From the NCBI GenBank assembly GCA_050175015.1, contig JBFXJJ010000001.1:1-64000 (forward strand): DNA of 64,000 bases. The letters run 5' to 3'. The notes beneath the pieces are model-generated. The model ran no database searches, was not told where the DNA came from, and saw nothing but the letters and a program-made list of their open reading frames with translations. A program made the position numbers and the translations under genes. Origin of the DNA: Alphaproteobacteria bacterium (GTDB lineage Bacteria; Pseudomonadota; Alphaproteobacteria; JBFXJJ01). Below are positions 14,448-60,066 of this stretch, piece by piece. The stretch's first letter is position 1. Each line of letters opens with the position of its first letter.

Positions 14448-17400
14448 CTATGCTTGTTTTTTATCCATTATGAGATATGGCTCTTCAGTATCACCATCAC
14501 TATCAAAATCTAAAATTGATGGTTCCTCTAAAGATGAAACCTTTTTCTCTATCTTTTTATTTTTAATTTGATAAACCTTTTTATCTAAACTAACAATATT
14601 AGGATTAACAGCTATATATATAGTGTTGTCATCAACAGGGTCATTATTATCTCTTGATGAATAAGGATCTAAAGTATTTGTCTCCAAATTATTTTTATCC
14701 TTCTTAGTTAAATTCATTAATAATATATTTGATGAATATGGGTCTTGCTCATCTTCATCAACAACCTTAGTTTTTCTAAGCTTTTCGCCTAAAGCATTAA
14801 GTTTCACTGATGCAATTTTTGGTACCGAAAATTTAGTATGCTTTTCAGGAGTACTTTCTATAACTTCTTCTTTTGCCACAGAATAGGGATTAAGATAGGT
14901 TTCATCTTCCCAGAAAATGTTATCTATAGAAATCACTGGTTCTTCTTCATAAGAATATTCTTCCTCAACCAAAGCGTCTGACGTCTCTTCTGAATATTCC
15001 TCTTCTATAGAACCATTAGAACTTGTTTCCTCAACTTCTTCGTAATAATAGCCTTCCTCTTCAGAATTCTCGGCACTAACTTCTTCACCTTCTTCGTAAT
15101 AGTATTCTTCTGCGGGATATTCGGAATCTGCCTCACCTGCTTCTTCGTAGTAGTATCCTTCCTCTTCAGAATTCTCAGCTACGGCTTCCTCTCCTTCTTC
15201 GTAATAATACTCTTCTTCCTCTGGATATTCAGAATCTGTTGCCTCGGCTTCTTCGTAATAATAGCCTTCCTCTTCGGGATATTCCTCTTCAATGTTTATA
15301 GCGTTTTCAAATTTTTGCTTAAGTTTTTCATAAAGCATTCTTTCGGCGGTTTCCCTATCATATCCCGCCGTTTCAGTTTGTTCGCCAATATATTCGTTAA
15401 TTAAGTCATCTTCCGAATATTCTTCATATTCTGGATACTCCTCATAACCCTCTTCGGCATAAACACCTTCTTCACTGGCTACTTCTTCATAATCTTCAAC
15501 TGGAGTTTCTTCTGCGTAGCCTTCTTCGCTGTACGTCTCTTCTTCGGTATAACCTTCTTCCGTATAGCCTTCGGCATATCCGCCCTCTGTTGCGGGATAA
15601 TCTTCATAACCCTCAGCGGGATATTCCTCAGTATATTCTTCCCCGCCGTATTCCTCAGTATAGTCTTCGCTATATTCGGCGGTAGCCTCTGGTGCGGTCT
15701 CTTCAGTATATTCCCCTGTTTCCTCTACATATTCTGGAGTTTCTCCTTCAGCATATTCTTCCGCATACTCTTCATATTCTGGATACTCCTCATAACCCTC
15801 TTCGGCATAAACACCTTCTTCACTGGCTGCTTCTTCATAATCTTCAACTGGGGTTTCTTCTGTGTAGCCTTCTTCGCTGTACGCATCTTCTTCGGTATAA
15901 CCTTCTTCCGAATATTCTTCATATTCTGGATACTCCTCATAACCCTCTTCGGCATAAACACCTTCTTCACTGGCTGCTTCTTCATAATCTTCAACTGGGG
16001 TTTCTTCTGTGTAGCCTTCTTCGCTGTACGTCTCTTCTTCGGTATAACCTTCTTCCGTATAGCCTTCGGCATATCCGCCCTCTGTTGCGGGATAATCTTC
16101 ATAACCCTCAGCGGGATATTCCTCAGTATATTCTTCCCCGCCGTATTCCTCAGTATAGTCTTCGCTATATTCGGCGGTAGCCTCTGGGGCTAGCTCTTCA
16201 GTATATTCTCCTGTTTCCTCTACATATTCTGGAGTTTCTCCTTCAGCGTATTCTTCCGAATATTCTTCATATTCTGGATACTCCTCATAACCCTCTTCGG
16301 CATAAACACCTTCTTCACTGGCTGCTTCTTCATAATCTTCAACTGGAGTTTCTTCTGCGTAGCCTTCTTCGCTGTACGCATCTTCTTCGGTATAACCTTC
16401 TTCTGTTGCTGGATATTCCTCAGTATACTCTTCCCCGCCATATTCCTCGGCATAGTCTCCGCTATATTCCTCTAACGATGTTTCGGGAGCATCTTGGAGC
16501 AGCTCTTTTGCCCGCCCTATAATATACTGCTCATCAAACTCTATAGGTACTTCTAGCTGTTGATCATTATATTCTTCATTAAAATCAACAATTCCATCTT
16601 CATATGCTATATTATCAGCACTGGTATTTTCATCTTGAGAATATAATGCTTTGCTAGTTTTTTCCTCTGGTTTTATTCCTGAAAGTTCAATTGCTTTAGC
16701 AATAATAGATGCTTGTTCTTCTAAGCTTACTTCGGAATTCTCTTTGCCCTTAAAAGCGCTTGCTAATGCCTGAATTTGGGCTTCTACTGATTTTCCTTGA
16801 TTCTCCAGAGCGCTAGCCATAGCATGGGCTTGCGCTTCAGCATTCATACCTGACGTTTTTTCTAAAGCATCCGCCAATGCTTTTGCCTGCATCTCTGCCG
16901 TTTTTTGCTGCGCTTCTAAAGCCTTTTCTTGCGTCAGCGCTAAAGCGTCAGCTAAAGCTTTTGCTTGTACCTCTGCTGTTTTATCCGTCTTTTCTAAAAC
17001 ACTCGATAAAGCTTTAGCTTGAGTTTCAGAAAGTTTTTCCTGACTCAAACTCATTGCTTCCGTAATAGCTTTTATTTGAGCATCAGCGGTTTTAGTTGAT
17101 GACTGCTCTAAGGCTCCAGCTAAAATTTTAGCTTGATTCTCTGCTGTTTTCTCTTGCGTTAAAGCTAAGGCATCAGCTAATGCTCTGGTTTGGATTTCGC
17201 CTGATTTTATTTGTGTTTTTTCTAATGCTGCCGAAAGAGCTGCTGCCTGAGCTTCTGCCGTTTGTTCTTGTGTTATTTTTAAAGCTTCAGCCAAAGCCAT
17301 ATTTTGATTTTTAGAATTTTGCTCATACGATTTATTCAGCGCTTCAGCCATTGCAACCGACAAAGCTTCCGCCTGTGTCTGCGCTGTTAAATCCTGCGTT

Positions 17401-18641
17401 TGAGCCAATGCCATAGCCAAAGCTTTTGCTTGAGACTGCAGTGATTTATTTTGAGATTCAGCCAAGGCATCAGCTAAAGATCTTGATGATCTTTCTTGAG
17501 AATCAGCCAAAGCTTTAGCAAGCATCTCAGCTTGAGCCTGAGCCGCATCTTGCTGAGCTTTTGCCGTTTGAATTTGGGTTTCTTTCAAAGCATTTGCAAG
17601 AGCTTTGGCCTGCGCTTCTGCCTGCAAAATAGCTGTATCTTTTTGCGCCGAAGCTAAAGCATCAGCTACAACCCTTGCCATTTGCTCTTGAGTTGTACGC
17701 ATAGCATCAGCTAGCGCTTGAGCTTGAGCCCTAGCGCTAATTTCTGCGGTCTGGGTTTGCGCATCAACCAAAGATCGAACTAAAACTTGATAATCTAAAT
17801 TGCCTCCTGAAGATGCCGGTGCAGCAACAGCTGCTTGAGGTGCTGAGGCAGGTGCAGCTTGAACAGGAGCGGGAGGCAAAGCTTGAGTTGGAGGAGGTGC
17901 TGTCGCTGGCGGAGGAGAATAATATTGCGGAAAAGGAGATTGAATAATCGGCTGCATAATGGTCGGCATTTGCAGCATAGGCATTTTCGAAAACATCGCT
18001 TTTTGATATTCTGCCAAAGAACCTTCGTCCAAAGATTGCACCTCAGCTAAAGCACTTGTCTGTGTTTTTAACATCTCCTGCTGAGCTTTTTGGAGCTGTG
18101 TATTTAATGCCGAAATATCTTTTTGATTGCTGTTGGTTTGTTGAGCGCTGTTTAAGGCTCTCATCAAACTTTCAACCTGCTGCCTTGCAGCTTCTTGTGA
18201 CTGCCGATGAGCCATAGCCAACACTTCAGCCTGCTCTCTAGCTAATGTTCGAGCCTGTTCATATGATTTTTCAGCATTAAGTTCTTGAGCCTTAGTCATA
18301 GCATCAGCAATTACCCTTGCTTGGGCCTTTTCTGCTGCTGTTATTTCTACCTCTTCTTCTTCTTCGCCATTAATCATACCTTTTAAATCGTCAAGATATG
18401 ATTGAACCTCACTGCCTCCTGGAAGCTGGCTAAAGAACTCCCTTACCTCAGGAGAAGCCGCAATCAGCATATCATCATACGCCAACTGCTTCTCTTCACT
18501 GAAGACGTGCATCTGTCTAAAAATATTGATGAATCTTTGGGCTATGACAACAGGTTCTTCTGGCCCGCCTTTATCTCTTTTTGTCGGGTCCCTTATTTTT
18601 TTCTTTTTAATATTGTCACTAGGAGCTAAATTTCCGCTCAT
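14448..18641 (-). CDS. Large repetitive hypothetical protein (Ala/Gln helical repeats and Glu/Tyr acidic repeats)
   Basis: 1397 aa ORF; GGAG SD upstream; no signal peptide or TM segment seen. Confidence 0.85.
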   Translation of the reverse strand: MSGNLAPSDNIKKKKIRDPTKRDKGGPEEPVVIAQRFINIFRQMHVFSEEKQLAYDDMLIAASPEVREFFSQLPGGSEVQSYLDDLKGMINGEEEEEVEITAAEKAQARVIADAMTKAQELNAEKSYEQARTLAREQAEVLAMAHRQSQEAARQQVESLMRALNSAQQTNSNQKDISALNTQLQKAQQEMLKTQTSALAEVQSLDEGSLAEYQKAMFSKMPMLQMPTIMQPIIQSPFPQYYSPPPATAPPPTQALPPAPVQAAPASAPQAAVAAPASSGGNLDYQVLVRSLVDAQTQTAEISARAQAQALADAMRTTQEQMARVVADALASAQKDTAILQAEAQAKALANALKETQIQTAKAQQDAAQAQAEMLAKALADSQERSSRSLADALAESQNKSLQSQAKALAMALAQTQDLTAQTQAEALSVAMAEALNKSYEQNSKNQNMALAEALKITQEQTAEAQAAALSAALEKTQIKSGEIQTRALADALALTQEKTAENQAKILAGALEQSSTKTADAQIKAITEAMSLSQEKLSETQAKALSSVLEKTDKTAEVQAKALADALALTQEKALEAQQKTAEMQAKALADALEKTSGMNAEAQAHAMASALENQGKSVEAQIQALASAFKGKENSEVSLEEQASIIAKAIELSGIKPEEKTSKALYSQDENTSADNIAYEDGIVDFNEEYNDQQLEVPIEFDEQYIIGRAKELLQDAPETSLEEYSGDYAEEYGGEEYTEEYPATEEGYTEEDAYSEEGYAEETPVEDYEEAASEEGVYAEEGYEEYPEYEEYSEEYAEGETPEYVEETGEYTEELAPEATAEYSEDYTEEYGGEEYTEEYPAEGYEDYPATEGGYAEGYTEEGYTEEETYSEEGYTEETPVEDYEEAASEEGVYAEEGYEEYPEYEEYSEEGYTEEDAYSEEGYTEETPVEDYEEAASEEGVYAEEGYEEYPEYEEYAEEYAEGETPEYVEETGEYTEETAPEATAEYSEDYTEEYGGEEYTEEYPAEGYEDYPATEGGYAEGYTEEGYTEEETYSEEGYAEETPVEDYEEVASEEGVYAEEGYEEYPEYEEYSEDDLINEYIGEQTETAGYDRETAERMLYEKLKQKFENAINIEEEYPEEEGYYYEEAEATDSEYPEEEEYYYEEGEEAVAENSEEEGYYYEEAGEADSEYPAEEYYYEEGEEVSAENSEEEGYYYEEVEETSSNGSIEEEYSEETSDALVEEEYSYEEEPVISIDNIFWEDETYLNPYSVAKEEVIESTPEKHTKFSVPKIASVKLNALGEKLRKTKVVDEDEQDPYSSNILLMNLTKKDKNNLETNTLDPYSSRDNNDPVDDNTIYIAVNPNIVSLDKKVYQIKNKKIEKKVSSLEEPSILDFDSDGDTEEPYLIMDKKQA
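15410..16400. repeat. Near-perfect 495-bp tandem duplication containing nested ~147-bp units
   Basis: ttccgaatat recurs at 15411 and 15906; protein architecture (X-Y-X)x2. Confidence 0.92.
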
Positions 18642-47433: not shown

Positions 47434-50400
47434 CTATTCTCTAAGAGTATCAATAATACGAGTCATCTTAGATTTAATGCGATTGTATCTTTCCTCAGAG
47501 AGATCATCAATAGCCACAGGCTGCAGCCTATCAGTATCGATGGTTCCGTCTGATGTTGATACACCATCACGATCGATTGAATCTACACAGGTATTAGTGT
47601 AAGGATTCCAAATCTTATCGTTAGAACATACACAAGTTCCACTGCTGTAGCTTGCTCCACTTGGACAATCTTTACATTCACCATTGTACCAAATTTGGTT
47701 CATACCACAGTCTACTGTATCAGCTGTCTTACATTCGCCATTTTGGCAAATATTAGATGAACAATGTCTGTTTTCTAAACATTCAAGACATTCAGAACCA
47801 CTCCAATAAGGCGTCTCTGAAGGACAGCACTTATTATCGCTACGACATTGCCTAATACCTGAGCAGTGACTGTTTGTGTAACATTCAATACAACCAGCCT
47901 GATCGCCAGTACATTCTACACACTCATAGTTAGAATTACACATCATTCCCGGAGTATCACAAGTTCCAGTATGTCCGCTAGTACCTGTACAAGGTTTACA
48001 TGCATTATTCTTCCAATAAGGTGTATATGATCCACAGCAAGAACCAGCATTAGTACCTGAAGTTTGGCACTGTTGGACACCAGAGCAAGCCGCATCACTA
48101 TATGAGCAAGAATTAGCTCCAGTAGCTAGATTACATGAGCCTGTACAGCATGAGTTAGTATTAACACAAGCGCCATTTCCATCTGGTTTCTGACTAGATC
48201 CACAGTTACAAGAACCACAAGCTGACGATGTAGAACATTCTGCACAATACTTAGGATCACCGGTACACTTGAAACCAGCTCCGCAATCACTATCGAAAGT
48301 ACATAAATCAGGGATTTCAACATCTCCGCCATAATTACATTCGTAATTTTCATCGCAGATAACACCTGTTGAAGGACATCCATTCTGACCGCCTGGAGTA
48401 TGGCATTCTGCACAGAAATATTCTCCACTCTGTTTAATACGATAGTATGGTTTATGCGATGGACAAGTGTTGCATGTATTTTGAGCACCATCAGCTGTTG
48501 AACAAATTTGATTACACCTAGTCCAAGCTGTTGTTCTGCTGTCAACCATACCTATTGGGCATCTATATTCTTTAGCACCCTGCGTTGACTGCATACACTG
48601 CCAGCTTGTTCCTATACCTGTACCCCATGTATAACCACAAAGGCCACGACATCCAGGAAGATCATCAGCGCTCTTATTCAAAACAGTATAATTAAACGGA
48701 TAATAATGCCATGAATAAGACGTTCCAACATCTCTAGGAGCAGAACAAGGAACACAACCAGCAAATTTAGGCCAAGTTGTTCCTGTTGGTGTACCCTCTG
48801 TTGCTTCATGATTATGACTATCATGACGCCAGAATGGAGCGTGCGGAGGACATGTACCACAAGTTTTTTCTCCAAAGTGGTCAATAATACCTGCATTAGT
48901 CATATTAATCGTCCATGAAGTATCACACTCAACACATTGACCATTAACGCATTCCAAACCACTTCCGGCACCACAATCATAATTTTCTTTACAGGTTGGT
49001 CCAATCCATTCAAAGTCAACACATTCACCACCGTCAGGGCAGTTACTAAATTCTGTTGAATTTGCTTTGTTACAACAAGTACAGAAATATTGATCTATAG
49101 GACCGGTTGATTTTGATTCCGCCTTCTTACGATAATATGGCTTATAGGAAGGACATGTTTGACATTCTGCCGTTCCTTCTTCGGTAGGACAGAGGTTAAC
49201 ACAGCTTCTCCAAGAATTATCAAAAGGTGTCGGAGGAATAAACCCAATTGGGCAGCGGTACATAATACCATGAGCATTTCTGTCATGAGCATTTCTCTGG
49301 CACTGCCAAGCAACGGTTGCACCACAATATCCGCGACATCCCGGAGTATCATATCTAGAAACATCATTAGGATAGAACGTTGCATGATGCGAACCTCCTG
49401 CTTCACAAGGAGTACAACCACCAGCCGCTGTTCTATAGTAAGGTGAATGAGTTGGACATGATCCACAAACAGATGCCCTAACTGCCGCATTTGTTTCTTC
49501 TGAATAGTGTGCACCAGAAATTGGGACAGATGGACAAGCTACGCATTCTCCAGTATTTGCATCACATTGCTTGCCGCTACCTTCGCCGCAGGCATGGTGA
49601 TTAGCACAAATACATCCACCCTCACCATCTTCTTTAAAGTTTTCTGGACACTTGCCGCAAACGTAGTTTTCATCACATTCTGAACAATATTCACTTGGCT
49701 GACTTGCCGTATGACAAGATGTACAGAAATATTCGCCATTCTGTTTTACGCGGTAGTAAGGTTTTGTTGAAGGACATGTGTTACATATATATTCTTCACC
49801 ATCAGAGATAGGACATATTGTAGCGCACTTGGTCCAAGCACCGGTTCTATTATCAACCATACCAACTGGACACATAGCAATATTAGCACCAGAAGTTATT
49901 TGGTTACATTGCCATTTATCAGAAGGAGAGCTACTTCCCCACGTGTATCCACAAAGACCACGACACCCAGGATAACCATCTGGAGTTTTATAAGGAGAAA
50001 CATCCCATTTGAATGTATGATAATACCAACTATACGCTGTTCCAGTGTTCTTTGGAGCCGAACATGGTACACAGCCTGAGAATTTATCTCTTCCACCGCC
50101 TGTATGATCATCATAACGCCAGAATGGGGCATGAGGAGGACATGTTCCGCAAGTTTTATCTAGAGACTGGTCTATAAATGCACCATTAGTGAAACTAACT
50201 GTCCAAGATGTGCTGCATTCTACACAAGTTCCATCAACACACTCGTAGCCATTTTGAGCACCACAATCATAGTTTTCTGAACAACTCTTTCCTGTGTATT
50301 CAAAATCTTTACAAGTTCCACCATCAGGACAAGTACCACCTTCTGTAGAATCAGACTGCTTACAACAAGTACAGAAGTACTTATCTATTGGTCCCGTTGA

Positions 50401-53400
50401 CCTTTCATCAGTTTTCTTTCTGTAGAATGGTTTATATGAAGGACACGTTGGACATTCGGCACTGCCGTTTGAAAGCGGACATACAGCACCACAATTACGA
50501 CGAACAGTATCAAATGTCGTATCTGGAACGATACCTACAGGACAACGTTCAATTACATCATGGGTTGGTAAACCATAATTATATCTTGAGCAAAGCCAAA
50601 CACCAGTTGCTCCACAATAACCACGGCAACCCATCGGAGTATCTAAACTTGAGAATGAATTAGCGTGGAACCCTGCATAGTAAGAACCACTGGAATCACA
50701 AGCTGTACATCCTATTGCCGAACGGAAGTAAGGTGCATGAGGTGGACACGTTGGACAAATTGACGCTCTAACACCAGCAACAATGTCATGACTATGATGC
50801 GCACCTGATACTATTGTATTAGGACAATCTACACATTCGCCACTAACACACATTTTACCACTACCTTCAATACAAGCATGGTGATTCAAGCAGTAACAAC
50901 CGCCTTCGCCATCATCTCCAAAGTTCTTTGGACAAGACTGACAAACATAATCCTCATCACAATCATCACAGAAAGAGCTTGTTTGATTTGGTGTATGACA
51001 TGACGAACAGAAATATTCACCATTTCTCTTTATTCTGTAATACGGTTTTGTATAAGGACAAGAGTTACAAGTATTAACAGCCCCATCAGATGTCGGACAA
51101 AGAGTATCACATCTTTTCCAAGCGGTTGTTCTAGTATCAACCATACCTATTGGACAACGGTATTCTTTAACTCCAGAATTTAACTGATTACACTGCCAAT
51201 TACTGGTATTTGTAGAACCTCCCCATGTATAGCCACAAAGACCTCTACAACCCTTGGTCTCTTCATAGCTCTTGTTTACATTGTTATAATTAAACGTGTA
51301 ATAATGCCAAGAATATGAGGCCCCTGTATTTTTTGGAGCCGAACAAGGGACACAGCCCGAGAACTTAGTCCAAGGAACGGAAGCTACAGGACTGCCCTGT
51401 CCAACTACATGGAAGTGGTCATCATACCTCCAGAATGGGGCATGAATAGGGCAAGTACCGCAAGTTTGCTCATAGCGTTGATCTATAATTGCAGCATTTG
51501 TGCTATAGACTGTCCAAGTTGTATCACATTCTGTACAGGTACCACTAACACATTCATAGCCACTTTGAGCACCACAATCATAATCCTCAGAACAACTCTT
51601 TCCAATATATTCAAAATCAACACATTCTCCACCATCTGGACAAGTACTTCCAATCGTTGAATTTGCCTGTTTACAACAAGTGCAGAAATATTGATCTACT
51701 GGACCTTTTGAATTTTCTGCTGTTTTTTTACGGAAGAACGGCTTGTATGACGGACAAGTATCACATTCCCCACCAGTTTCTGTAGTATCACATAATGTTG
51801 TACAACTTCTCCAAACAGCATCGAACGGTATTGGGTTCATATAACCAACAGGACAACGTGCCATAATACTATATGAAGTATTTGGATAAGCATAACGTTG
51901 ACACTGCCAATTATTACAATAACCACGACACCCTAAAATTGCACTACCAGGAAAACCATTATAGTAGAAATTGGCCCAATAGGCTCCAGCTGTTGAACAA
52001 GGAGAACATGCTCCTATAGCTGCACGATAGAACGGAGCATATGTTGGACAACTTCCACAGGTAGATGCTCTAACTGTAGCAAGGAGTTCTTGAGAACCTT
52101 CTGAACCTCCAACGTTAGCTGAAGGACAAGCTTCACATTCTCCTGTTGAGAAGTTACATTGCCTACCACTACCTTCACCACAAGCATGATGGCTTATACA
52201 ACGACATTTGCCTGTCCCATCGTCTTCGGTATAATCTGGACAGCCCAAACATACATAGTTTTCATCACAAATACCACAGTAACTACTTGGTGTGCTTGGT
52301 GTATGACACGCTGTACATAAATATTCACCACTTGGCTTCTTACGGTAATATGGCTTGTTATATGGACACGAGTTACAAGTATTACTTTCACCATCAGATG
52401 TTGAACATACCGCACCGCATTTAGTCCAAGCTCCTGTTCTTGCATCAACAATACCAACTGGACAACGAGCTTGCCAAGAACCCTGATTTGATTGCATACA
52501 CTGCCATTTATCAGAAAGTGATGTACTTCCAGAGTAATAGCCGCAAAGACCTCGGCATCCAGGATAGTCATCGGCTGTTTTATATGGGCTTATACCATTG
52601 CTAAATGTCCAAGAATGCCAGTAATATGCCGTTCCTGTGTTCTTTGGAGCCGAACAAGGCACACAACCTGCGAATTTAGACCAACCTCCACCAGTATGGT
52701 CATCATAACGCCAGAATGGAGCATGTATTGGACAAGTTCCACAAGTCTTATCTTGTGATTGATCTATAACAGCACCGTTGTTAAAATTAATAGTCCAAGT
52801 TGTATCACATTCTGTACACTTACCATCAACACATTCATAACCACTTTCAGCACCGCAATCGTAATTTTCTGAACAATCCTTACCGGTATATTCAAAATCC
52901 GTACAAGTACCGCCGTCTGGACAAGTTCCTCCATTAGTACTATTTGCTCGCTTACAACACGTACAGAAATATTGATCTAATGGGCCAGTTGATCTTGCTG
53001 TAGTTTTCTTACGGAAATATGGTTTATGTGGCGGACAAGTATCACATGTACTTGTGTTATCATTTGTTGGACATAAATTAGTACAATTACGTCTTGTAGT
53101 ATCAAACAATAATGGAACATCGTACCCTACTGGACAACGCTCAATTATTCCATGAGTAGATAAACCATGATTATATCTTGAACATACCCAACTACTACAA
53201 TAACCACGGCACCCCACAGGCGTATTTAAAAGCGGGAAAGGATTGCCATGATGAACAGCATAATAAGCTGCACTAGAGTCACAAGGTTGACAACCACCAG
53301 ATCTATAATAAGGAGCATAAGGTGGGCACGTTGGACAAACTGATGCCCTAACTGCAGCAACAGTATCATGCGAATGATTAGCTCCTGATATAACTGTAGA

Positions 53401-56400
53401 TGGACAAGCTACACAAGCACCGTTCACACACATTTTTCCGCTGCCTTCACCACAAGCATGGTGATTAGCACAAAGACAACGACCATTACCATCATCTATG
53501 AAGTTTTCTGGACAACCCAAACACGTATAATCAGCATCACACTCACCACAGAAAGAACTTGGCTGGCTTGGTGTATGACATGACGAACAGAAGTATTCAC
53601 CATTTGGTTTCATACGATAATAGGGAGTTGTAACAGGACAAGAATTACAAGTGTTAGCCTCACCATCATTAGTATCACAAAGAGGACCACACACAGTCCA
53701 AGCTGCTGTTCTCTGATCAACAATGCCTACTGGACAACGATACTCTTTCGCTCCACTATTAAGCTGCATACAAGCCCAGTTACTTCCAGGATATTGACCA
53801 GACTGATAACCACAAATACCACGACAGCCCGGAGAATCATCAGCACTCTTATTTAAAGCAGAGTTATTAAATGGATAATAATGCCAATAAGATGCAGATG
53901 AACCTGTACTCTTAGATGCCGAACATGGGACACAACCAGCAAATTGAGGCCAAGCAGTCCCTGTAGGATTGCCTTCTACAGAAGTATGAGAGTGATCATC
54001 ATAACGCCAGAATGGAGCGTGCGGTGGACATGTTCCACATGTTTTTTCACCAGCATGATCTATGATAGAACCAGTAACCGCGGTTAATGTCCAAGAAGTA
54101 TCACACTCTGTACATTTACCATTAACACATTCGTAGCCACTTTGGGCACCACAATCATAGTTATCTGAGCAATCTTTGCCAGTATATTCAAAGTCTGTAC
54201 AAGTACCACCAGATGGGCAAGTGCCTCCATCTGTAGTATTAGCTTGTTTACAACACGTACAGAAGTACTGATTTATAGGACCTGATGATCTATGATCTGT
54301 TTTCTTACGGAAATATGGTTTATATGACGGACAAGTTCCACAAGATGTAGTATTATCTCCTGTTGGACAAAGTGTTGAACATGCTCTATAAGTCGCGTCA
54401 TATGGATATGGAGGCTGATAACCTACAGGACAACGAGCAATAATATGATGTTGGTTATAGTTCCAAGCATATATAGAACAAATCCAAGCCCCAGCACCAC
54501 CACAGTAACCACGACAACCTAAGATACCTTTAGATGGCATAGCATTCTGCCAAACATTGCCATGATAAGCCGCGCTTGATTCACAAGGTGTACACCCGCC
54601 TGCTCCAGTTCTAAAGAAAGGAGCATATGTTGGGCATGTTCCACAGGTTGAGGCGGCTACACTAGCATTTGTTTCATGAGAACCTGAAGCTCCAGAAACT
54701 GGTACAGATGGACAAGCAACACACTTGCCACTTATACACTGCATACCACTGCCTTCTGAACCACAAGCAAAGTGATCAGTACATGCACAACTACCATCTC
54801 CTGGGTCTTCAAAGTGATCTGGACATGCTGTACACATATAGTTTTCATCACAAGCTCCACAGAACGAGCTTGGTTGATTTGGTGTATGACATGATGAACA
54901 GAAATATTCACCATTTGGTTTTTTACGATAATATGGAGAAACAGCTGGGCACGTATTACATGTATTAGCAGCACCATCTGCAATAGGACATAAAGTATTA
55001 CATACTGTCCAGGCCCCAGTTCTATTATCAACCATACCAACAGGACACATAGCAACATTAGAACCAGATGTTACCTGTAAACACATCCAAGCGCTTTGAG
55101 CTGACTGCCCAACTTGCGCTCCTGCCTGATAGCCGCAAAGACCTCGGCAACCTGGATACCCTTCTGGAGTCTTATAAGGAGAAACGTTCCATGCAAATGT
55201 ATGATAATACCAATAATAACTAGAACCTGTGTTCTTAGGTATGGCACATGGTACGCATCCAGAAAATTTAGTCCAAGGTGTTGCCGCTAAAGGATATCCT
55301 TGACCAACAGCATGGTTATGATCATCATAACGCCAGAATGGGGCATGCGGAGGGCAGGTTCCACAAGTTTTAATGCCAGATTGATCAAGATATGCGCCAT
55401 TAGTAGTAGATACAGTCCAAGAAGTATCACATTCTGTACACTTACCATTAACACACTCATAACCACTTTCTGCACCACATTCATAATTTTCTGTACAATC
55501 CTTAGACCATTCAAAATCTGTACACGTGCCTCCAGACGGACATGCGCCGCCATCGGTAGTATCTGCTTGTCTACAACAAGTACAGAAATATTGTTCAATA
55601 GGACCATTCACGTTTTCTTGAGGTTTTCTACGATAAAAAGGTTTGTATGATGGACACGTTGAACATGTTGCATCATTGTCTCCAAATGGACAAACGGTAT
55701 CACAGTCACGCCAAGTCTGATCAAACGGAGTTGGAGCAATCATACCAACTGGGCAACGAGTCATAATGTAATTAGTATTGATATTATAGGCATATCTACG
55801 ACAAGACCAAGCATTACAATATCCACGGCATCCAGGAATCTTAACATTAGGAAAACCATTTGGATAAATATTTGCCCAATATACTCCAGCCGCAGAACAA
55901 GGTGTACACCCTCCTGCGTCTTTTCTATAGAATGGAGCGTGAGGAGGACAACTTGGACAAGTAGAAGCTATAACTGTTGCATTAGTTTCATGAGAATAGT
56001 CACCACCACTGACAGCAGCAGAAGGACAAGCAACACAATCACCACTTACACACTGCATACCACTGCCTTCAGCACCACATGCAAAATGGTTTATACAACG
56101 GCAGCCACCTTTTCCATCGCTCTCAAAATTTGTAGGACATGTTTGGCATACATATTTTTCATCGCAATCATCACAATATGGGCTACTTGTACTTGGAGTG
56201 TGGCAAGACGTACAGAAATATTCACCACTAGGTTTCTTACGATAATATGGCTTTGTTGCGGGACAAGAATTACAAGTATTGCTTGATCCATCTGTAATTG
56301 GGCAAACTTGACAAGCTGTCCAAGCACTAGTTCTCTTATCAATCATACCTATCGGACAACGAGCCTGCCAAGAGCCTTGATTAGACTGCATACAACTCCA

Positions 56401-57516
56401 ATCACCTCCAGGATAAACTCCTCCTGTATAACCACAAAGACCACGACAACCTGGCAAGTCATCTGCGGCTTTATATGGGCTCACTGTATAATTAAACGTC
56501 CAATAGTGATTATAATATTGATAACCTGTATTTTTTGGTGCAGAACAAGGCACACAGCCTGAAAACTTAGTCCAATTTGTACCTGTTGGATTTCCTGTGG
56601 TTGAGGCATGATTATGATCATCATAACGCCAGAATGGAGCATGAACAGGACAAGTGCCGCAGGTTTTCTGCGTTGTATGGTCAATAATAGAAGCAACACC
56701 ACCTGTAGTAACAGTATTAATTGTCCATGTTGTATCGCATTCTACACATTTATTATCCACACATTCATAGCCTAAACTGTTTTTATCTACACTCATACAA
56801 TCAAAATTGTTGTTACAAGTTTTCGTCCATTCAAAATCTTTACAAATTCCTCCTTCTGGACAAGCTCCATCATCCGTAGAATCAGCTTGACGACAACAAG
56901 TGCAGAAATATTGGTCGACAGGACCTGTAGATTTGGCCTCTGTCTTTTTACGGTAATAAGGTTTATGAGCAGGGCACGTATCACACTCATTACTATTATC
57001 ATCTGTAGGACAAAGCTCTGTACAACTACGCCAAGTAGCATCAAGTAAAGACGGATTCATATAACCAACAGGACAACGGTACATGATGTTATATTGAGGT
57101 CTATAATGTCCATACCTCTGGCATTGCCAAGCAGCCGAAGCACCACAATATCCTCGGCAACCAGGAATTTTATAAGGAGGAACATCATGATAATAATATG
57201 TTGCGTGATAAGAATTTCCAGCTTCACAGGGAGTACAACCACCAGCTCCAGATCTAAAAAACGGGGCATACGTTGGACAGGTTCCACAAACAGATGCTGC
57301 AACAGCTGAGTTTAATTCATGACAATAATGCGCCCCAGAAACAGCCGCCGTTGCACAATTGGTACAAACTCCATCAACACATTCTCTACCACTGCCTTCA
57401 ATACCACAGTCAAAATGGCTAGTGCAGTACGTAGCGTATGAGACATTAGGAGAGCTGACTAAAATGGCACAAAATGTGATACCAAAAGATACTAATATAC
57501 TGATTTTATTGAACAT
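47434..57516 (-). CDS. Giant secreted cysteine-rich tandem-repeat protein (~3360 aa)
   Basis: Uninterrupted 10 kb ORF. An AGGAGA SD precedes the ATG at 57516 (MFNKISILVSFGITFCAILVSSPNVSYA signal peptide). Seven ~430 aa Cys-rich units are followed by a Cys-rich tail. Confidence 0.93.
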   Translation of the reverse strand: MFNKISILVSFGITFCAILVSSPNVSYATYCTSHFDCGIEGSGRECVDGVCTNCATAAVSGAHYCHELNSAVAASVCGTCPTYAPFFRSGAGGCTPCEAGNSYHATYYYHDVPPYKIPGCRGYCGASAAWQCQRYGHYRPQYNIMYRCPVGYMNPSLLDATWRSCTELCPTDDNSNECDTCPAHKPYYRKKTEAKSTGPVDQYFCTCCRQADSTDDGACPEGGICKDFEWTKTCNNNFDCMSVDKNSLGYECVDNKCVECDTTWTINTVTTGGVASIIDHTTQKTCGTCPVHAPFWRYDDHNHASTTGNPTGTNWTKFSGCVPCSAPKNTGYQYYNHYWTFNYTVSPYKAADDLPGCRGLCGYTGGVYPGGDWSCMQSNQGSWQARCPIGMIDKRTSAWTACQVCPITDGSSNTCNSCPATKPYYRKKPSGEYFCTSCHTPSTSSPYCDDCDEKYVCQTCPTNFESDGKGGCRCINHFACGAEGSGMQCVSGDCVACPSAAVSGGDYSHETNATVIASTCPSCPPHAPFYRKDAGGCTPCSAAGVYWANIYPNGFPNVKIPGCRGYCNAWSCRRYAYNINTNYIMTRCPVGMIAPTPFDQTWRDCDTVCPFGDNDATCSTCPSYKPFYRRKPQENVNGPIEQYFCTCCRQADTTDGGACPSGGTCTDFEWSKDCTENYECGAESGYECVNGKCTECDTSWTVSTTNGAYLDQSGIKTCGTCPPHAPFWRYDDHNHAVGQGYPLAATPWTKFSGCVPCAIPKNTGSSYYWYYHTFAWNVSPYKTPEGYPGCRGLCGYQAGAQVGQSAQSAWMCLQVTSGSNVAMCPVGMVDNRTGAWTVCNTLCPIADGAANTCNTCPAVSPYYRKKPNGEYFCSSCHTPNQPSSFCGACDENYMCTACPDHFEDPGDGSCACTDHFACGSEGSGMQCISGKCVACPSVPVSGASGSHETNASVAASTCGTCPTYAPFFRTGAGGCTPCESSAAYHGNVWQNAMPSKGILGCRGYCGGAGAWICSIYAWNYNQHHIIARCPVGYQPPYPYDATYRACSTLCPTGDNTTSCGTCPSYKPYFRKKTDHRSSGPINQYFCTCCKQANTTDGGTCPSGGTCTDFEYTGKDCSDNYDCGAQSGYECVNGKCTECDTSWTLTAVTGSIIDHAGEKTCGTCPPHAPFWRYDDHSHTSVEGNPTGTAWPQFAGCVPCSASKSTGSSASYWHYYPFNNSALNKSADDSPGCRGICGYQSGQYPGSNWACMQLNSGAKEYRCPVGIVDQRTAAWTVCGPLCDTNDGEANTCNSCPVTTPYYRMKPNGEYFCSSCHTPSQPSSFCGECDADYTCLGCPENFIDDGNGRCLCANHHACGEGSGKMCVNGACVACPSTVISGANHSHDTVAAVRASVCPTCPPYAPYYRSGGCQPCDSSAAYYAVHHGNPFPLLNTPVGCRGYCSSWVCSRYNHGLSTHGIIERCPVGYDVPLLFDTTRRNCTNLCPTNDNTSTCDTCPPHKPYFRKKTTARSTGPLDQYFCTCCKRANSTNGGTCPDGGTCTDFEYTGKDCSENYDCGAESGYECVDGKCTECDTTWTINFNNGAVIDQSQDKTCGTCPIHAPFWRYDDHTGGGWSKFAGCVPCSAPKNTGTAYYWHSWTFSNGISPYKTADDYPGCRGLCGYYSGSTSLSDKWQCMQSNQGSWQARCPVGIVDARTGAWTKCGAVCSTSDGESNTCNSCPYNKPYYRKKPSGEYLCTACHTPSTPSSYCGICDENYVCLGCPDYTEDDGTGKCRCISHHACGEGSGRQCNFSTGECEACPSANVGGSEGSQELLATVRASTCGSCPTYAPFYRAAIGACSPCSTAGAYWANFYYNGFPGSAILGCRGYCNNWQCQRYAYPNTSYSIMARCPVGYMNPIPFDAVWRSCTTLCDTTETGGECDTCPSYKPFFRKKTAENSKGPVDQYFCTCCKQANSTIGSTCPDGGECVDFEYIGKSCSEDYDCGAQSGYECVSGTCTECDTTWTVYSTNAAIIDQRYEQTCGTCPIHAPFWRYDDHFHVVGQGSPVASVPWTKFSGCVPCSAPKNTGASYSWHYYTFNYNNVNKSYEETKGCRGLCGYTWGGSTNTSNWQCNQLNSGVKEYRCPIGMVDTRTTAWKRCDTLCPTSDGAVNTCNSCPYTKPYYRIKRNGEYFCSSCHTPNQTSSFCDDCDEDYVCQSCPKNFGDDGEGGCYCLNHHACIEGSGKMCVSGECVDCPNTIVSGAHHSHDIVAGVRASICPTCPPHAPYFRSAIGCTACDSSGSYYAGFHANSFSSLDTPMGCRGYCGATGVWLCSRYNYGLPTHDVIERCPVGIVPDTTFDTVRRNCGAVCPLSNGSAECPTCPSYKPFYRKKTDERSTGPIDKYFCTCCKQSDSTEGGTCPDGGTCKDFEYTGKSCSENYDCGAQNGYECVDGTCVECSTSWTVSFTNGAFIDQSLDKTCGTCPPHAPFWRYDDHTGGGRDKFSGCVPCSAPKNTGTAYSWYYHTFKWDVSPYKTPDGYPGCRGLCGYTWGSSSPSDKWQCNQITSGANIAMCPVGMVDNRTGAWTKCATICPISDGEEYICNTCPSTKPYYRVKQNGEYFCTSCHTASQPSEYCSECDENYVCGKCPENFKEDGEGGCICANHHACGEGSGKQCDANTGECVACPSVPISGAHYSEETNAAVRASVCGSCPTHSPYYRTAAGGCTPCEAGGSHHATFYPNDVSRYDTPGCRGYCGATVAWQCQRNAHDRNAHGIMYRCPIGFIPPTPFDNSWRSCVNLCPTEEGTAECQTCPSYKPYYRKKAESKSTGPIDQYFCTCCNKANSTEFSNCPDGGECVDFEWIGPTCKENYDCGAGSGLECVNGQCVECDTSWTINMTNAGIIDHFGEKTCGTCPPHAPFWRHDSHNHEATEGTPTGTTWPKFAGCVPCSAPRDVGTSYSWHYYPFNYTVLNKSADDLPGCRGLCGYTWGTGIGTSWQCMQSTQGAKEYRCPIGMVDSRTTAWTRCNQICSTADGAQNTCNTCPSHKPYYRIKQSGEYFCAECHTPGGQNGCPSTGVICDENYECNYGGDVEIPDLCTFDSDCGAGFKCTGDPKYCAECSTSSACGSCNCGSSQKPDGNGACVNTNSCCTGSCNLATGANSCSYSDAACSGVQQCQTSGTNAGSCCGSYTPYWKNNACKPCTGTSGHTGTCDTPGMMCNSNYECVECTGDQAGCIECYTNSHCSGIRQCRSDNKCCPSETPYWSGSECLECLENRHCSSNICQNGECKTADTVDCGMNQIWYNGECKDCPSGASYSSGTCVCSNDKIWNPYTNTCVDSIDRDGVSTSDGTIDTDRLQPVAIDDLSEERYNRIKSKMTRIIDTLRE
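48325..57426 (-). repeat. Seven diverged tandem units of ~1.27-1.33 kb
   Basis: Unit starts (minus strand) at 57426, 56097, 54783, 53472, 52200, 50892 and 49608; the DNA motif acgccagaatgg or close variants recurs in each unit. Confidence 0.92.
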
Positions 57517-57758
57517 GTTCTGTTCTCCTAATGCAAGATGTAAAAAACCCATTAAGCTCTTTACACATGGAAACCCTTATCTGTATTTTGCCTTAAAATT
57601 TATCCCAATGCAATTAAAAAAAATGCGCTATTTTTATGAAAATTCTATATTTTTTTTATTTTTATTTAATACAATTTTTTAATTCTGTTTTGTTTCAATC
57701 TGTCTTTTTTTAAAAAATATTCCTTTTTTATAAGACTGCTTTTTTAGAATCTTATGAC

Positions 57759-59174
57759 TTAAATAAAAACCTTTATGTAATCTCTTTCTATTTCTTCATC
57801 ACACAAATCCTCGCCATCTTTAGCAAGCATAAAATCATAAAGACCAAGACCATTAAGCACTCTGAAATAAGCATTGTTATATTTGCCATAAGGCATATTT
57901 TCTGCTAGTTCTGATACAGTTTTATTACTTACATTTTTTAGAACATGGATAGAAGATGGTTCTATTTTTTTGGCTTCTTCCTCTGAATAACGCTTAAAAG
58001 ACTTAGATATAATTTCTTCCCAATCATCAAAATTATCTCCATTATTTTTAGTATCAATAAATCTAAAATAATAGCTCTGCTCATCTTTATCTTTTTTTAC
58101 GTAATCTTTCATCGTTGCTTTCTTAATTTCATACATTATTTCGTTTTTAGAAACGATAAAAAACTCCTCTTTTTTTTCATCTACAAAAACTAATCCTTCT
58201 TGGATATCGTCAAAATTACTTGCAGGTCTTAAATTTTCGGGCAAATTAAATGAAATTCGCAATTCTGGATTCGTGTAAGATTTTCCCTTTAAAAAACCTT
58301 TACCTATTTTATTGCCACAAACCAATCCCTCAATCGCCTCAAAAAACGGTTTTTTGTTCAATTTGAAATCCTCACTCAAAGCGTTAGAACTTTCAATGAT
58401 TGCTTTTTGTATTCTTTCTTTTGTTCTGGGGTGCGTTTCCATAATATCAATTTTATCGGCATCTTTAACTTTGCCGCCGTTCATAACTGCTGCTAATTTG
58501 CTATAAGCATAGAATGTTTCGAAACCTGCAACACTTGCCTCTGGATCATAGCCTGCTTTCGACATATATCTTATTCCCAATTTATCGGCTTCAAACTCTT
58601 GTTTCCTAGTAAATCCTCTTAACAAAACAGATGTTAACGTATCAAGACCATTATCAAACATATCGTTTGTTGTTTGACCATTTCCTGACATCAAAGCCTT
58701 AATGGCAAGTTTAGTGAATTTAGCCCAATAGTATTGAGCGATTGCTTCTGATATATGCCTTGCATTAACATGACCTAGCTCGTGTCCCAAAATACTAGCT
58801 AACTCAGCCTCACTGTTAAGATACGATAAAAGTCCCCGATAAATATAAATATATCCACCAGAAACAGCAAAAGCATTTACATCTGGAGCATCTAAAACAA
58901 AAAAACGATATTTATATTCTTGATTTTCAACGTGTTTTGCTAATTCGTTTCCTATTTTAGTAACATAATTTTGAACTTTTATATTCTCATATTCGCCACC
59001 ATTCTCTTTTAAAACTTGGGCATGATTTTTTTTAGTATCCTCAATGTCATATTTGACGCTTGTTCCGATAAGTGACATTCTACCTGTGGCTATATTTCGA
59101 GCACAACCTGATAAACCCAAAGTTGCACAAGATGCCAGAAACCCTTTACCAAAATTGCGACGGTTTATTTTCAT
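57759..59174 (-). CDS. M48-family zinc metalloprotease, Tat lipoprotein
   Basis: RRNF twin-arginine motif, LSGC lipobox, NAFA, HELGH, QEFEAD, THP. Confidence 0.9.
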   Translation of the reverse strand: MKINRRNFGKGFLASCATLGLSGCARNIATGRMSLIGTSVKYDIEDTKKNHAQVLKENGGEYENIKVQNYVTKIGNELAKHVENQEYKYRFFVLDAPDVNAFAVSGGYIYIYRGLLSYLNSEAELASILGHELGHVNARHISEAIAQYYWAKFTKLAIKALMSGNGQTTNDMFDNGLDTLTSVLLRGFTRKQEFEADKLGIRYMSKAGYDPEASVAGFETFYAYSKLAAVMNGGKVKDADKIDIMETHPRTKERIQKAIIESSNALSEDFKLNKKPFFEAIEGLVCGNKIGKGFLKGKSYTNPELRISFNLPENLRPASNFDDIQEGLVFVDEKKEEFFIVSKNEIMYEIKKATMKDYVKKDKDEQSYYFRFIDTKNNGDNFDDWEEIISKSFKRYSEEEAKKIEPSSIHVLKNVSNKTVSELAENMPYGKYNNAYFRVLNGLGLYDFMLAKDGEDLCDEEIERDYIKVFI

Positions 59175-59226
59175 ATTTCAAAAAACTCCAAACTATGCCA
59201 TAGTTATAAAAATGAATTTACCTTTT

Positions 59227-59922
59227 ATGAAATTAAAAAAATTTTTATTTTTTATCTTCTGTTTTTATTCAACACCACTAAAAGCTGAGGCGTTGATTTT
59301 AAACCGAATAGATGAAAATGGAATCTTTTTTTTTGAAAATAATCAAAGAGCTTTTTTGAAAAACCTCTGGCTGCAAGATCGCGCTGTAGATTACTTGGTT
59401 AGCAATATTACTCCTGCCTCAGAATTGACATTGTCTTATAAAAACTTGAAAAACGATAGATATGGCAACTTAGCTGCTGATATTTATTTTAATGGTACCT
59501 GGCTGCAAAAAGAACTTTTAGAAAAAGGGCTTGCCATATTCTACGATACTAGCGGTGACGATGAAGCTTCTTTGCTTTTAAACTTTGAGAAAACGGCTAG
59601 AGAAAACCGCCAGGGCTTTTGGGAAGATTTAAGCAAAATTCAAAAAGCAGAAAGCATAAATCCATACTTTAATGATAAAGCTTTAGTAATTGGAAAAGTA
59701 GATCATATCAAAACTACAAAAAATAATATTTTCATTAATTTTGGTAAGGATTTTAAAAAGTCTTTTGCTGTTCAAACAGATACTAAAATTGCCCTGCCCC
59801 AATTAGAAGGGCAGATGGTGCTTGTCAGAGGCTTTATACAAAAATATCATAGTGCTTTTATCTCACTAAAAAGCCCTTTTCATATTGAAATTATTGATGA
59901 AAAAGATTGGTCTCTGCCATAA
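59227..59922 (+). CDS. Thermonuclease (SNase)-like secreted protein
   Basis: DRYGNL.A...WLQKELLEKGLA...E..AR....GFW; start moved to the ATG at 59227 (signal peptide) to avoid overlap with the M48 gene. Confidence 0.75.
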   Translation: MKLKKFLFFIFCFYSTPLKAEALILNRIDENGIFFFENNQRAFLKNLWLQDRAVDYLVSNITPASELTLSYKNLKNDRYGNLAADIYFNGTWLQKELLEKGLAIFYDTSGDDEASLLLNFEKTARENRQGFWEDLSKIQKAESINPYFNDKALVIGKVDHIKTTKNNIFINFGKDFKKSFAVQTDTKIALPQLEGQMVLVRGFIQKYHSAFISLKSPFHIEIIDEKDWSLP

Positions 59923-59992: not shown

Positions 59993-60066
59993 TGGAGCGG
60001 GTGAGGGGAATCGAACCCCCGTATTCAGCTTGGGAAGCTGATGTTCTACCATTGAACTACACCCGC
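59993..60066 (-). tRNA. tRNA-Gly (CCC)
   Basis: Reverse complement GCGGGTGTAGTTCAATGGTAGAACATCAGCTTCCCAAGCTGAATACGGGGGTTCGATTCCCCTCACCCGCTCCA folds as a cloverleaf with anticodon CCC and encoded CCA. Confidence 0.97.

Follow-up and report, generated by a model that had tools for sequence, protein, structure and literature searches.

Several bacteria are known to vary their surface proteins by recombining segments. Borrelia (vlsE/vls), Anaplasma (msp2) and Neisseria (pilE/pilS) each combine an expression site with silent donor cassettes, and exchange leaves recent, near-identical tracts as well as variants within populations. In protists, cysteine-rich surface proteins with CXXC motifs are represented by the variant-specific surface proteins of Giardia and by the immobilisation antigens of ciliates. 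Here, we analyze a gene that recalls both groups, located in the first 64,000 nucleotides (nt) of contig JBFXJJ010000001.1 of an uncultured Alphaproteobacteria bacterium (assembly GCA_050175015.1), a stretch hereafter called the window. The gene (47434–57552, minus strand) is a single open reading frame (ORF) of 3372 amino acids (aa), of which 362 are cysteines (10.7%), and its product consists of a probable signal peptide followed by seven head-to-tail units of 424–443 aa and by a distinct cysteine-rich tail of 289 aa. Different loops of these units group them in different ways, which an initial annotation of this DNA ascribed to a combinatorial shuffling of loop cassettes through the conserved framework DNA, with no recombinase or reverse transcriptase encoded in the window. 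Such recombinase-free shuffling would, if true, be a new bacterial route to protein diversity; the evidence reported below speaks against it. On balance, we read the conflict within the array as the old scar of tandem duplications that were out of phase with the units, running from mid-unit to mid-unit.

With the bacterial systems named above, the gene shares the idea of variable segments recombining between stretches of conserved framework DNA; donor cassettes, near-identical tracts and population variants, however, were not found for it. With the antigens of Giardia and ciliates and with the bacterial "Cys-rich repeat" family TIGR04201, it shares a high cysteine content, many CxxC pairs and a long internal periodicity, its tail showing a sub-threshold similarity to TIGR04201 that does not establish membership of that family.

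Regarding domain repeats in general, it has been reported that they mostly expand when several domains are duplicated together, frequently in mid-array (Björklund et al., 2006, PMC1553488), and unequal crossing-over as well as gene conversion have been named as routes of repeat change (Gemayel et al., 2012, PMC3899988). As in the arrays dealt with in the relevant passages of the former study, the units examined here stand head to tail, kin are found among non-neighbors, duplication would have occurred within the array rather than at its ends, and neighbors are never of the same type. The present array differs in being bacterial, in being built of a ~435-aa unit with 46 cysteines that belongs to no described family, and in having a phase that can be read from two loop sets; phase-shifted pieces are not explicitly treated in those passages (Björklund et al., 2006). 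The FLO and ALS adhesins of yeasts, as presented in part of the latter review (Gemayel et al., 2012), are likewise probably extracellular and contain a long internal array that owes its form to unequal crossing-over or gene conversion, but their units are near-identical and their copy number shifts on laboratory time scales, whereas the units of the present gene have a DNA identity of 62–70% and no variation of the array was seen.

Seven Units With Two Conflicting Sets of Loops

The seven units, for which the initial annotation had given the span 48325–57426, are homologous, lie in one reading frame and share 54–63% of their residues with each other. Each of them typically contains 46 cysteines (range 44–47) and consists of two homologous subdomains, A and B, in both of which two CxxCP-x3-P-[FY]-[FYW]-R modules can be recognized by eye. 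When the units were aligned with MAFFT (457 columns), a front block (approximately columns 1–310) and a rear block (approximately columns 311–457) could be distinguished, with three types of front block (a, b and c) and three types of rear block (x, y and z). All units being encoded on the minus strand, unit 1 (U1, aa 43–485, 56098–57426) joins a front block of type a (56515–57426) to a rear block of type x (56098–56514), and its two loops referred to below as loop I and loop II lie at 56572–56613 and 56353–56394, respectively. The same reading gives types b (55216–56097) and y (54784–55215) for U2 (aa 486–923, 54784–56097), a (53890–54783) and z (53473–53889) for U3 (aa 924–1360, 53473–54783), and c (52624–53472, with a short loop I) and x (52201–52623) for U4 (aa 1361–1784, 52201–53472). 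Further downstream, U5 (aa 1785–2220, 50893–52200) combines b (51313–52200) with z (50893–51312), U6 (aa 2221–2648, 49609–50892) combines c (50032–50892) with y (49609–50031), and U7 (aa 2649–3083, 48304–49608) combines a (48715–49608) with z (48304–48714), its final ~30 residues being unlike those of the other units and running into the tail.

The groupings on which the initial annotation was based were recovered exactly. Indeed, loop I, which follows APFWRYDDH, unites U1, U3 and U7 (G[NT]PTGTxW), U2 and U5 (VGQGxPxxxxPW), and U4 and U6 (TGGG with a 10-codon gap), whereas loop II, which precedes RCP or MCP, unites U1 and U4 (identical at 13/13 residues), U2 and U6 (TSGxNxAMCP, with YKTPxGYPG upstream), and U3, U5 and U7 (GxKEYRCP, with NKS upstream). 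That these groupings conflict beyond chance was also borne out. The maximum likelihood (ML) trees of columns 1–300, ((1,7),(2,5),(3,(4,6))), and of columns 301–457, ((1,4),(2,6),(3,(5,7))), reject each other both at the protein level (difference in log-likelihood, lnL, of 61 and 57; p 5e-4 and 1e-4 in the approximately unbiased, AU, test) and at the DNA level (AU p 1e-7 and 3e-3), and the pairing of front and rear blocks in the phase of the initial annotation, hereafter the nominal phase, ranks 4175th among all 5040 possible pairings. Among the trees of eight consecutive segments, those of columns 1–120 and 231–295 give U4 with U6, U2 with U5, and U1 with U7 or with U3 and U7, while those of columns 296–380 give U2 with U6, U1 with U4, and U3 with U5 and U7; columns 121–230 and 381–457 carry weaker, differing signals. 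The loops of subdomain A (columns 61–120) group U4/U6, U2/U5 and U1/U7, as does the first loop of subdomain B. Moreover, U4 and U6 share 36 alignment columns exclusively, spread over columns 15–381, nine of which fall within the 10-codon gap. Correlations between the p-distance matrices of front and rear blocks were also computed; being weak and noisy (r −0.12 to 0.26 for the nominal pairing, and at best 0.48, rank 49 of 5040, at breakpoint 340, for the shifted pairing described below), they were replaced by likelihood tests.

One Major Breakpoint per Unit

Breakpoints were sought by painting the alignment, i.e., by segmenting the site likelihoods of all 945 topologies through dynamic programming with a lnL penalty per switch. 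In the nominal phase, a penalty of 15 leaves two segments, columns 1–310 and 311–457, while a penalty of 10 gives six segments, and one of 6 gives fourteen, mostly for small gains. The loops thus do not behave as the independent cassettes that had been envisaged: each unit has a single major breakpoint, near column 310, and the loops of a block stay together, the front block comprising those of subdomain A and the first of subdomain B, and the rear block the second loop and the YKTP/NKS stretch. The proposal that recombination passed through conserved framework DNA fares better in part. The block boundary (columns 290–313) does include a well conserved stretch, the fifth best 30-nt window of the unit with a mean pairwise identity of 78%, and some form of recombination between units most likely gave rise to the incongruence; it is the shuffling of cassettes and the ongoing mechanism that we do not retain. 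Single-changepoint scans of each unit gave positions scattered between columns 119 and 359, too noisy for placing individual junctions. Likewise, the pairwise homoplasy index (PHI) and a Sawyer-type test on codon positions 1 and 2 were highly significant and were not relied on, since neighboring codon positions are dependent and uneven constraint clusters matches.

Reading the Array in a Shifted Phase

From U1 to U7, the front types run a b a c b c a and the rear types x y z x z y z. If each rear block is read together with the front block of the following unit, x is always followed by b, y by a and z by c, so that 6/6 links are one-to-one and the array becomes (Y-tail) X Y Z X Z Y (Z-head), in which three kinds of piece occur. 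An alignment in this shifted phase comprises six rows (S1–S6), each made of rear block i and front block i+1. Painted with a penalty of 15, it forms one segment with the tree ((S1,S4),(S2,S6),(S3,S5)), which is the ML tree of the rear blocks and is accepted by the front blocks, at a lnL difference of 2.1 (AU 0.27) for protein and 1.3 (AU 0.26) for DNA, to be compared with losses of 57–61 lnL in the nominal phase. Forcing one tree on the shifted pairing costs 0–4.2 lnL relative to free trees, versus means of 17–24 (standard deviation 7–11) for random pairings; this pairing falls within the best 7–13% of 720 random ones, and the common tree is accepted by 6/8 protein segments. In a doubled six-row alignment, the cumulative site-lnL difference between the trees ((1,4),(2,6),(3,5)) and ((1,3),(2,5),(4,6)) declines to −39.5 at about column 300, then climbs steadily, with no change in slope where one unit meets the next, and levels off once +37.7 is reached at column 304 of the following unit; as the halves of this curve share data, the sole new information that it brings is the one-to-one link. 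Together, these results suggest, and do not prove, that contiguous pieces were co-inherited across the nominal unit border. They also concern a premise of the initial annotation, according to which a single duplication history could not give incongruent groupings. This premise is wrong, since unequal crossing-over at an internal point yields the same incongruence, and the re-phased unit yields one tree accepted by both blocks. Conflicting groupings of segments among tandem units hence do not by themselves show shuffling, and the phase of the duplicated piece needs to be tested beforehand, by combining every rear block with the front block that follows it.

In the history that we propose, the array would have grown long ago by tandem duplications with junctions located within subdomain B, at about alignment column 310 and directly after the conserved GCVPCSAPKNTG stretch, and not at the unit border of the initial annotation. 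Misaligned units would likely have undergone unequal crossing-over or replication slippage: a crossover within a unit would duplicate everything from its position up to the equivalent position of a later unit, so that each duplicated piece would start with a rear block and continue into the front block of the unit that follows. Since a unit in the nominal phase combines the tail of one such piece with the head of a second, front and rear groupings would differ without any later shuffling. Afterwards, the copies would have diverged until their silent sites were saturated, while purifying selection would have retained the type-specific loops. It is quite possible that some old conversion took place in addition to duplication.

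A number of observations weigh against this history. The phase shift was spotted post hoc, once the groups were known, and its permutation p values amount to 0.067 (breakpoint 320), 0.078 (breakpoint 335) and 0.13 (breakpoints 290–310), with a floor of 0.067 because three cherries make 48/720 pairings equivalent; with seven rows and cyclic closure, the shifted pairing ranks 545 of 5040. The ML tree of the front blocks themselves lacks the {S2,S6} cherry (i.e., U3 with U7), and the rear blocks reject this tree (AU 0.012 for protein, 0.029 for DNA). PHI on residues does not improve upon shifting (p 0.006–0.08 versus 0.002–0.07 in the nominal phase). At the protein level, columns 186–237 and 139–237 reject the common tree (AU 0.006), the former preferring (U2,U3,(U4,((U5,U7),U6))), while at the DNA level the same columns keep it (AU 0.095 and 0.116). 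The border between the blocks is ragged, with U4 resembling U6 up to about column 354 and U6 already U2-like at columns 313–329. Front-block ML distances are nearly star-like, only U4–U6 being clearly close (0.48 versus a mean of 0.76), and as U2–U5 and U3–U7 (both 0.73) are near the mean over the whole block, their kinship rests on the loops. Finally, silent sites, which are considered below, bring no positive evidence for the common descent of same-type segments.

Subdomains A and B are connected by a linker (FEYTGK.CS.NYDCGA, columns ~177–215) that is most similar among U3–U6 and different in U1, U2 and U7; neither block tree agrees with this positional gradient, from which the residual signal at columns 186–237 stems. 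Regarding the order of types, no like neighbors occur (13% by chance) and all six ordered pairs of neighbors are present (3.6%, post hoc); this order was not used as evidence.

Silent Sites and the Age of Exchange

At the DNA level, units are 61.7–69.7% identical to each other and the longest identical aligned run of a pair measures 17–30 nt, ending in the APFWRYDDH codons in 8/21 unit pairs. The longest exact repeat of the array, 30 nt coding for APFWRYDDH, is found at 50113–50142 (U6) and at ~55317–55347 (U2). Tandem Repeats Finder reported no repeats in the gene, since the copies have diverged too far and a period of ~1300 nt is beyond the 500 that the program allows. Synonymous divergence (dS, NG86 method) ranges from 1.09 to 1.95 for whole units and from 0.81 to not computable for same-type segments, and even the identical 13-aa loop of U1 and U4 has synonymous differences at 6/13 codons. 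Nonsynonymous divergence (dN) between units is only 0.25–0.38 versus a dS above 1, which we read as purifying selection on the units that preserves the type-specific loops.

Same-type segments are no closer to each other than other segments at identical residues, codons being identical in 747/1309 cases (57.1%) versus 2224/3868 elsewhere (57.5%, p 0.80); for residues common to at most three units, the counts are 100/187 and 166/315 (p 0.93). Same-type pairs agree in their six-fold codon families in 41/62 cases and other pairs in 99/181 (p 0.14), and the serine at column 322 is encoded by AGC in U1 and U4 and by TCT in U2 and U6. At third positions, no conversion tracts were detected by a Sawyer-type test (SSCF, p 0.28) and no signal was obtained with PHI in windows of 50 nt (p 0.89) or 100 nt (p 0.62), while a 200-nt window gave p 0.03. 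As silent sites are saturated, recent exchange is excluded, yet very old common descent and convergence are not separable by this means. According to the initial annotation, silent sites pointing to convergence of the shared loops would have spoken against shuffling; on this question the outcome is neutral, for it dismisses recent exchange and does not tell descent from convergence. Common descent of the shared loops appears to be the better reading in view of the 10-codon gap, of the identity at 13/13 residues and of the many loops that co-segregate.

Loops and framework were also compared, as had been suggested, for their dN and dS: the 29 most variable columns gave a dN of 1.12 and a dS of ~1.3, and the framework a dN of 0.31 and a dS of ~1.5, values that allow no conclusion on positive selection because the columns were picked for their variability, which makes the comparison circular, and because dS is saturated. 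From the sequences at hand, we read the exchange between units as ancient and the mosaic as a fossil and not as active shuffling. Loops that were kept unchanged while silent sites became saturated would be good candidates for ligand-binding sites.

Present-Day Variation and Donors

The only public run found to hold this DNA is a landfill metagenome, possibly the source sample. Its Logan contigs cover the gene with three colinear pieces at ~17-fold depth and with 0 differences; no alternative joints were seen in these contigs, which drop rare variants. Contigs built with k=31 break only at the 30-nt run common to U2 and U6. In two further runs of the same study (X2 and X3), the sampled words are almost entirely missing and the single match is a short, unrelated piece at ~57658–57720, which is not evidence of absence. 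In the organism's own genome, no silent donor cassettes were found, the only related sequences being the gene itself and one paralog with its own tail. The sole RVT_1 match of the genome is a 586-aa ORF on another contig (C20:9763–11521, minus strand) with a YADD motif and a long C-terminal extension, which we take to be retron-type or defense-like and unrelated to the array. As to a diversity-generating retroelement, no RVT_1 lies near the gene, and pairs of repeats within it reach no more than 70% identity over a unit, no search having been made for a template repeat in other parts of the genome. With no recent tracts, saturated dS and no alternative joint in the only run holding the gene, the active diversification mechanism put forward in the initial annotation finds no support.

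A Paralog With a More Recent Exchange

The paralog (contig C11:2–4782, plus strand, loci L008–L010) is cut by the start of its contig and retains three units (V1–V3) and its own tail, which is 68% identical to the tail of the gene (dS not computable). In both block trees, the V1–V3 clade adjoins U3 (bootstrap 88 for the front and 60 for the rear block), which indicates that the unit types predate the array of the paralog. V1 and V2 share a tract, at approximately columns 301–375 of the ten-unit alignment, with a DNA identity of 85–92% versus ~55–60% elsewhere, a dN of 0–0.03 and a dS of 0.41–0.72 (versus more than 0.8 or saturated elsewhere), and codon identity at 45/64 versus 119/224 positions (p 0.015). 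This tract is the sole significant fragment in a Sawyer-type test on all sites (global p <0.001). Partial-unit exchange thus did occur in this family, later than in the gene of the window, and the tract begins near the same position of the unit. The end of the contig inside the array may conceal more similar copies left unresolved by the assembly. Loop I was shortened separately in U4/U6 and in V1/V2, which are not grouped in the front-block tree, demonstrating that convergence of loop length does occur.

Alternative Explanations and Possible Function

The array might instead have formed in the nominal phase and then undergone several short gene conversions between units, by now long extinct, that moved loop-bearing segments. 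Such patchy conversion would account for the residue PHI that remains at p 0.006–0.08 in the shifted phase, for the rejection of the common tree by columns 186–237 (protein AU 0.006), for the U2-like and U4-like patches that alternate in U6 over columns 313–374, and for the weak preference of columns 121–170 for U1/U4 and U2/U6 (bootstrap 61–71%); the V1/V2 tract is an instance of partial-unit exchange in the family, and the shifted pairing reaches only p 0.07–0.13. However, one breakpoint and not many is found at a stringent penalty, loops 170 columns apart remain together, third positions contain no tracts, and all six rear-to-next-front links are one-to-one, which free assortment gives 6.7% of the time. 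A low PHI on residues might, on reasoning alone, also result from local structural covariation or from errors in loop alignment. We hold conversion of this kind to be an unlikely, though by no means negligible, source of the conflict. Convergence, i.e., a near-simultaneous star radiation of the units followed by the parallel origin or the retention of a few workable loop solutions, appears improbable. It would agree with the silent sites, at which same-type segments are no closer than others (57.1 versus 57.5%), with the failure of six-fold codon families to separate the types (p 0.14), with the nearly star-like distances between whole blocks and with the shortening of loop I in both U4/U6 and V1/V2 in spite of their separate placement in the front-block tree. 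Against it stand the 13/13 residues common to U1 and U4, the 10-codon gap and 36 exclusive columns of U4 and U6, the serine codons of column 322 (AGC in U1 and U4, TCT in U2 and U6) and the many loops that would need to converge in step.

That recombination through framework DNA still reshuffles the loops today is, in our view, very improbable. Six distinct combinations of front and rear blocks do occur in the seven units, but random assortment gives at least six in 69% of draws, so that this count has little weight, and similar copies might be hidden where the contig of the paralog ends inside its array. Shared runs, on the other hand, do not exceed 30 nt, dS is saturated in the shared loops, no joints or variants appear in the contigs of the run holding the gene, even though rare variants drop out of them, the genome contains no donor cassettes, and its sole RVT_1 match lies on another contig. 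Regarding a chimera in which a metagenome assembler misjoined units and created false mosaics, the 49-contig assembly, the landfill metagenome as only holder and the break of the k=31 assembly at the run common to U2 and U6 call for attention. This explanation is scarcely credible, given that the units are 62–70% identical with shared runs of at most 30 nt, below the usual read length, that a second assembler yields three colinear contigs with 0 differences and that the frame is open over 10 kb; a swap at the U2/U6 run would, moreover, leave the pattern of types unchanged, as both units have rear type y. The out-of-phase duplications proposed above remain the reading that we prefer.

As to function, the front sets (a, b and c) and the rear sets (x, y and z) could conceivably be two separate binding half-sites, each maintained by selection, of which old crossovers at a single conserved hinge of subdomain B would have dealt six of the nine pairings. 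The protein would then be a fixed combinatorial binding panel, i.e., a germline-encoded, multi-specificity receptor or adhesin of an undescribed fold family. We regard this as a rather improbable conjecture.

Search for Relatives

No significant match was obtained for the gene product in sequence searches of Pfam, NCBIfam and the PDB. The best Pfam-A matches of the gene had E-values of 0.0055 and 0.054, both below gathering thresholds, and a single unit and the tail gave no match in Pfam-A at E up to 10. A unit profile found one chance-level match in the PDB (E 0.35), and TIGR04201 (Myxo_Cys_RPT) scored 15.1 bits against the tail, below its cut-off of 25 and over the first 15 tail residues only. 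A HMMER search over 1.84 billion representative proteins of all lengths returned three sequences, namely the gene product itself, the paralog and a weak match (E 2.9e-4), P0004, from a public protein library. No relatives were detected in the 40 nearest genomes, which are related at the level of the class only, and no further ones in metagenome contigs or in word-index searches of a 5.8-billion-protein database among long, near-length and shorter proteins, the 90%-cluster proteins of 743–1853 aa being left out of the word-index search.

P0004 (631 aa) has a lipoprotein-like N-terminus and five tandem CP-x2-(A/M/L)-PYWR-x-G-x-C-x-PC modules. It shares with the gene product this short module only, and has neither the A + B unit nor a large array. 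The module recurs four times per unit as variants (APF[FYW]R and KPYYR) and twice, as xPYW modules, in the C-terminal tail (47437–48303, minus strand), which is cysteine-rich and lies outside the array; it may represent an undescribed family of cysteine-rich modules. Judged by its sequence, the 3372-aa protein would be an orphan of a new family, while the phenomenon itself is of a known kind.

Genomic Setting and Additional Observations

The ORF is uninterrupted over 10 kb. In the protein database, its product is given as 3360 aa, with a start 12 codons further in. A probable Sec signal peptide (57433–57516, minus strand, aa 13–40) was recognized by eye from its Lys-bearing start, its hydrophobic stretch and its SYA end, and suggests that this very large protein is secreted. 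The window consists of chromosomal DNA, the gene being surrounded by recF, gyrB, a gene for a BepA-like M48 protease, glnE, a YhdP-like gene and the gene of alanine dehydrogenase. The genome (2.53 Mb in 49 contigs) is 99.4% complete; its GyrB reaches 68% identity at best with named records, which are all from Alphaproteobacteria. The G+C content of the repeat gene (0.41–0.42 over 48001–56000) is higher than that of its flanks (0.31–0.38), which may be a simple effect of a composition rich in Cys, Gly, Pro and Ala.

Elsewhere in the window, a 1397-aa ORF without Pfam or NCBIfam match (14448–18641, minus strand) contains Ala/Gln-rich repeats resembling AQAKALADAL, followed by acidic, Glu/Tyr-rich EEGYTEE tandem repeats, and the G+C content is also raised within it (0.436 at 16001–18000). 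The ORF of the BepA-like M48 protease (57759–59174, minus strand) and an SNase-like ORF (59044–59922, plus strand) overlap by ~130 nt on opposite strands, one of their starts being probably placed too far upstream, and a tRNA-Gly(CCC) gene is located at 59993–60066 on the minus strand.

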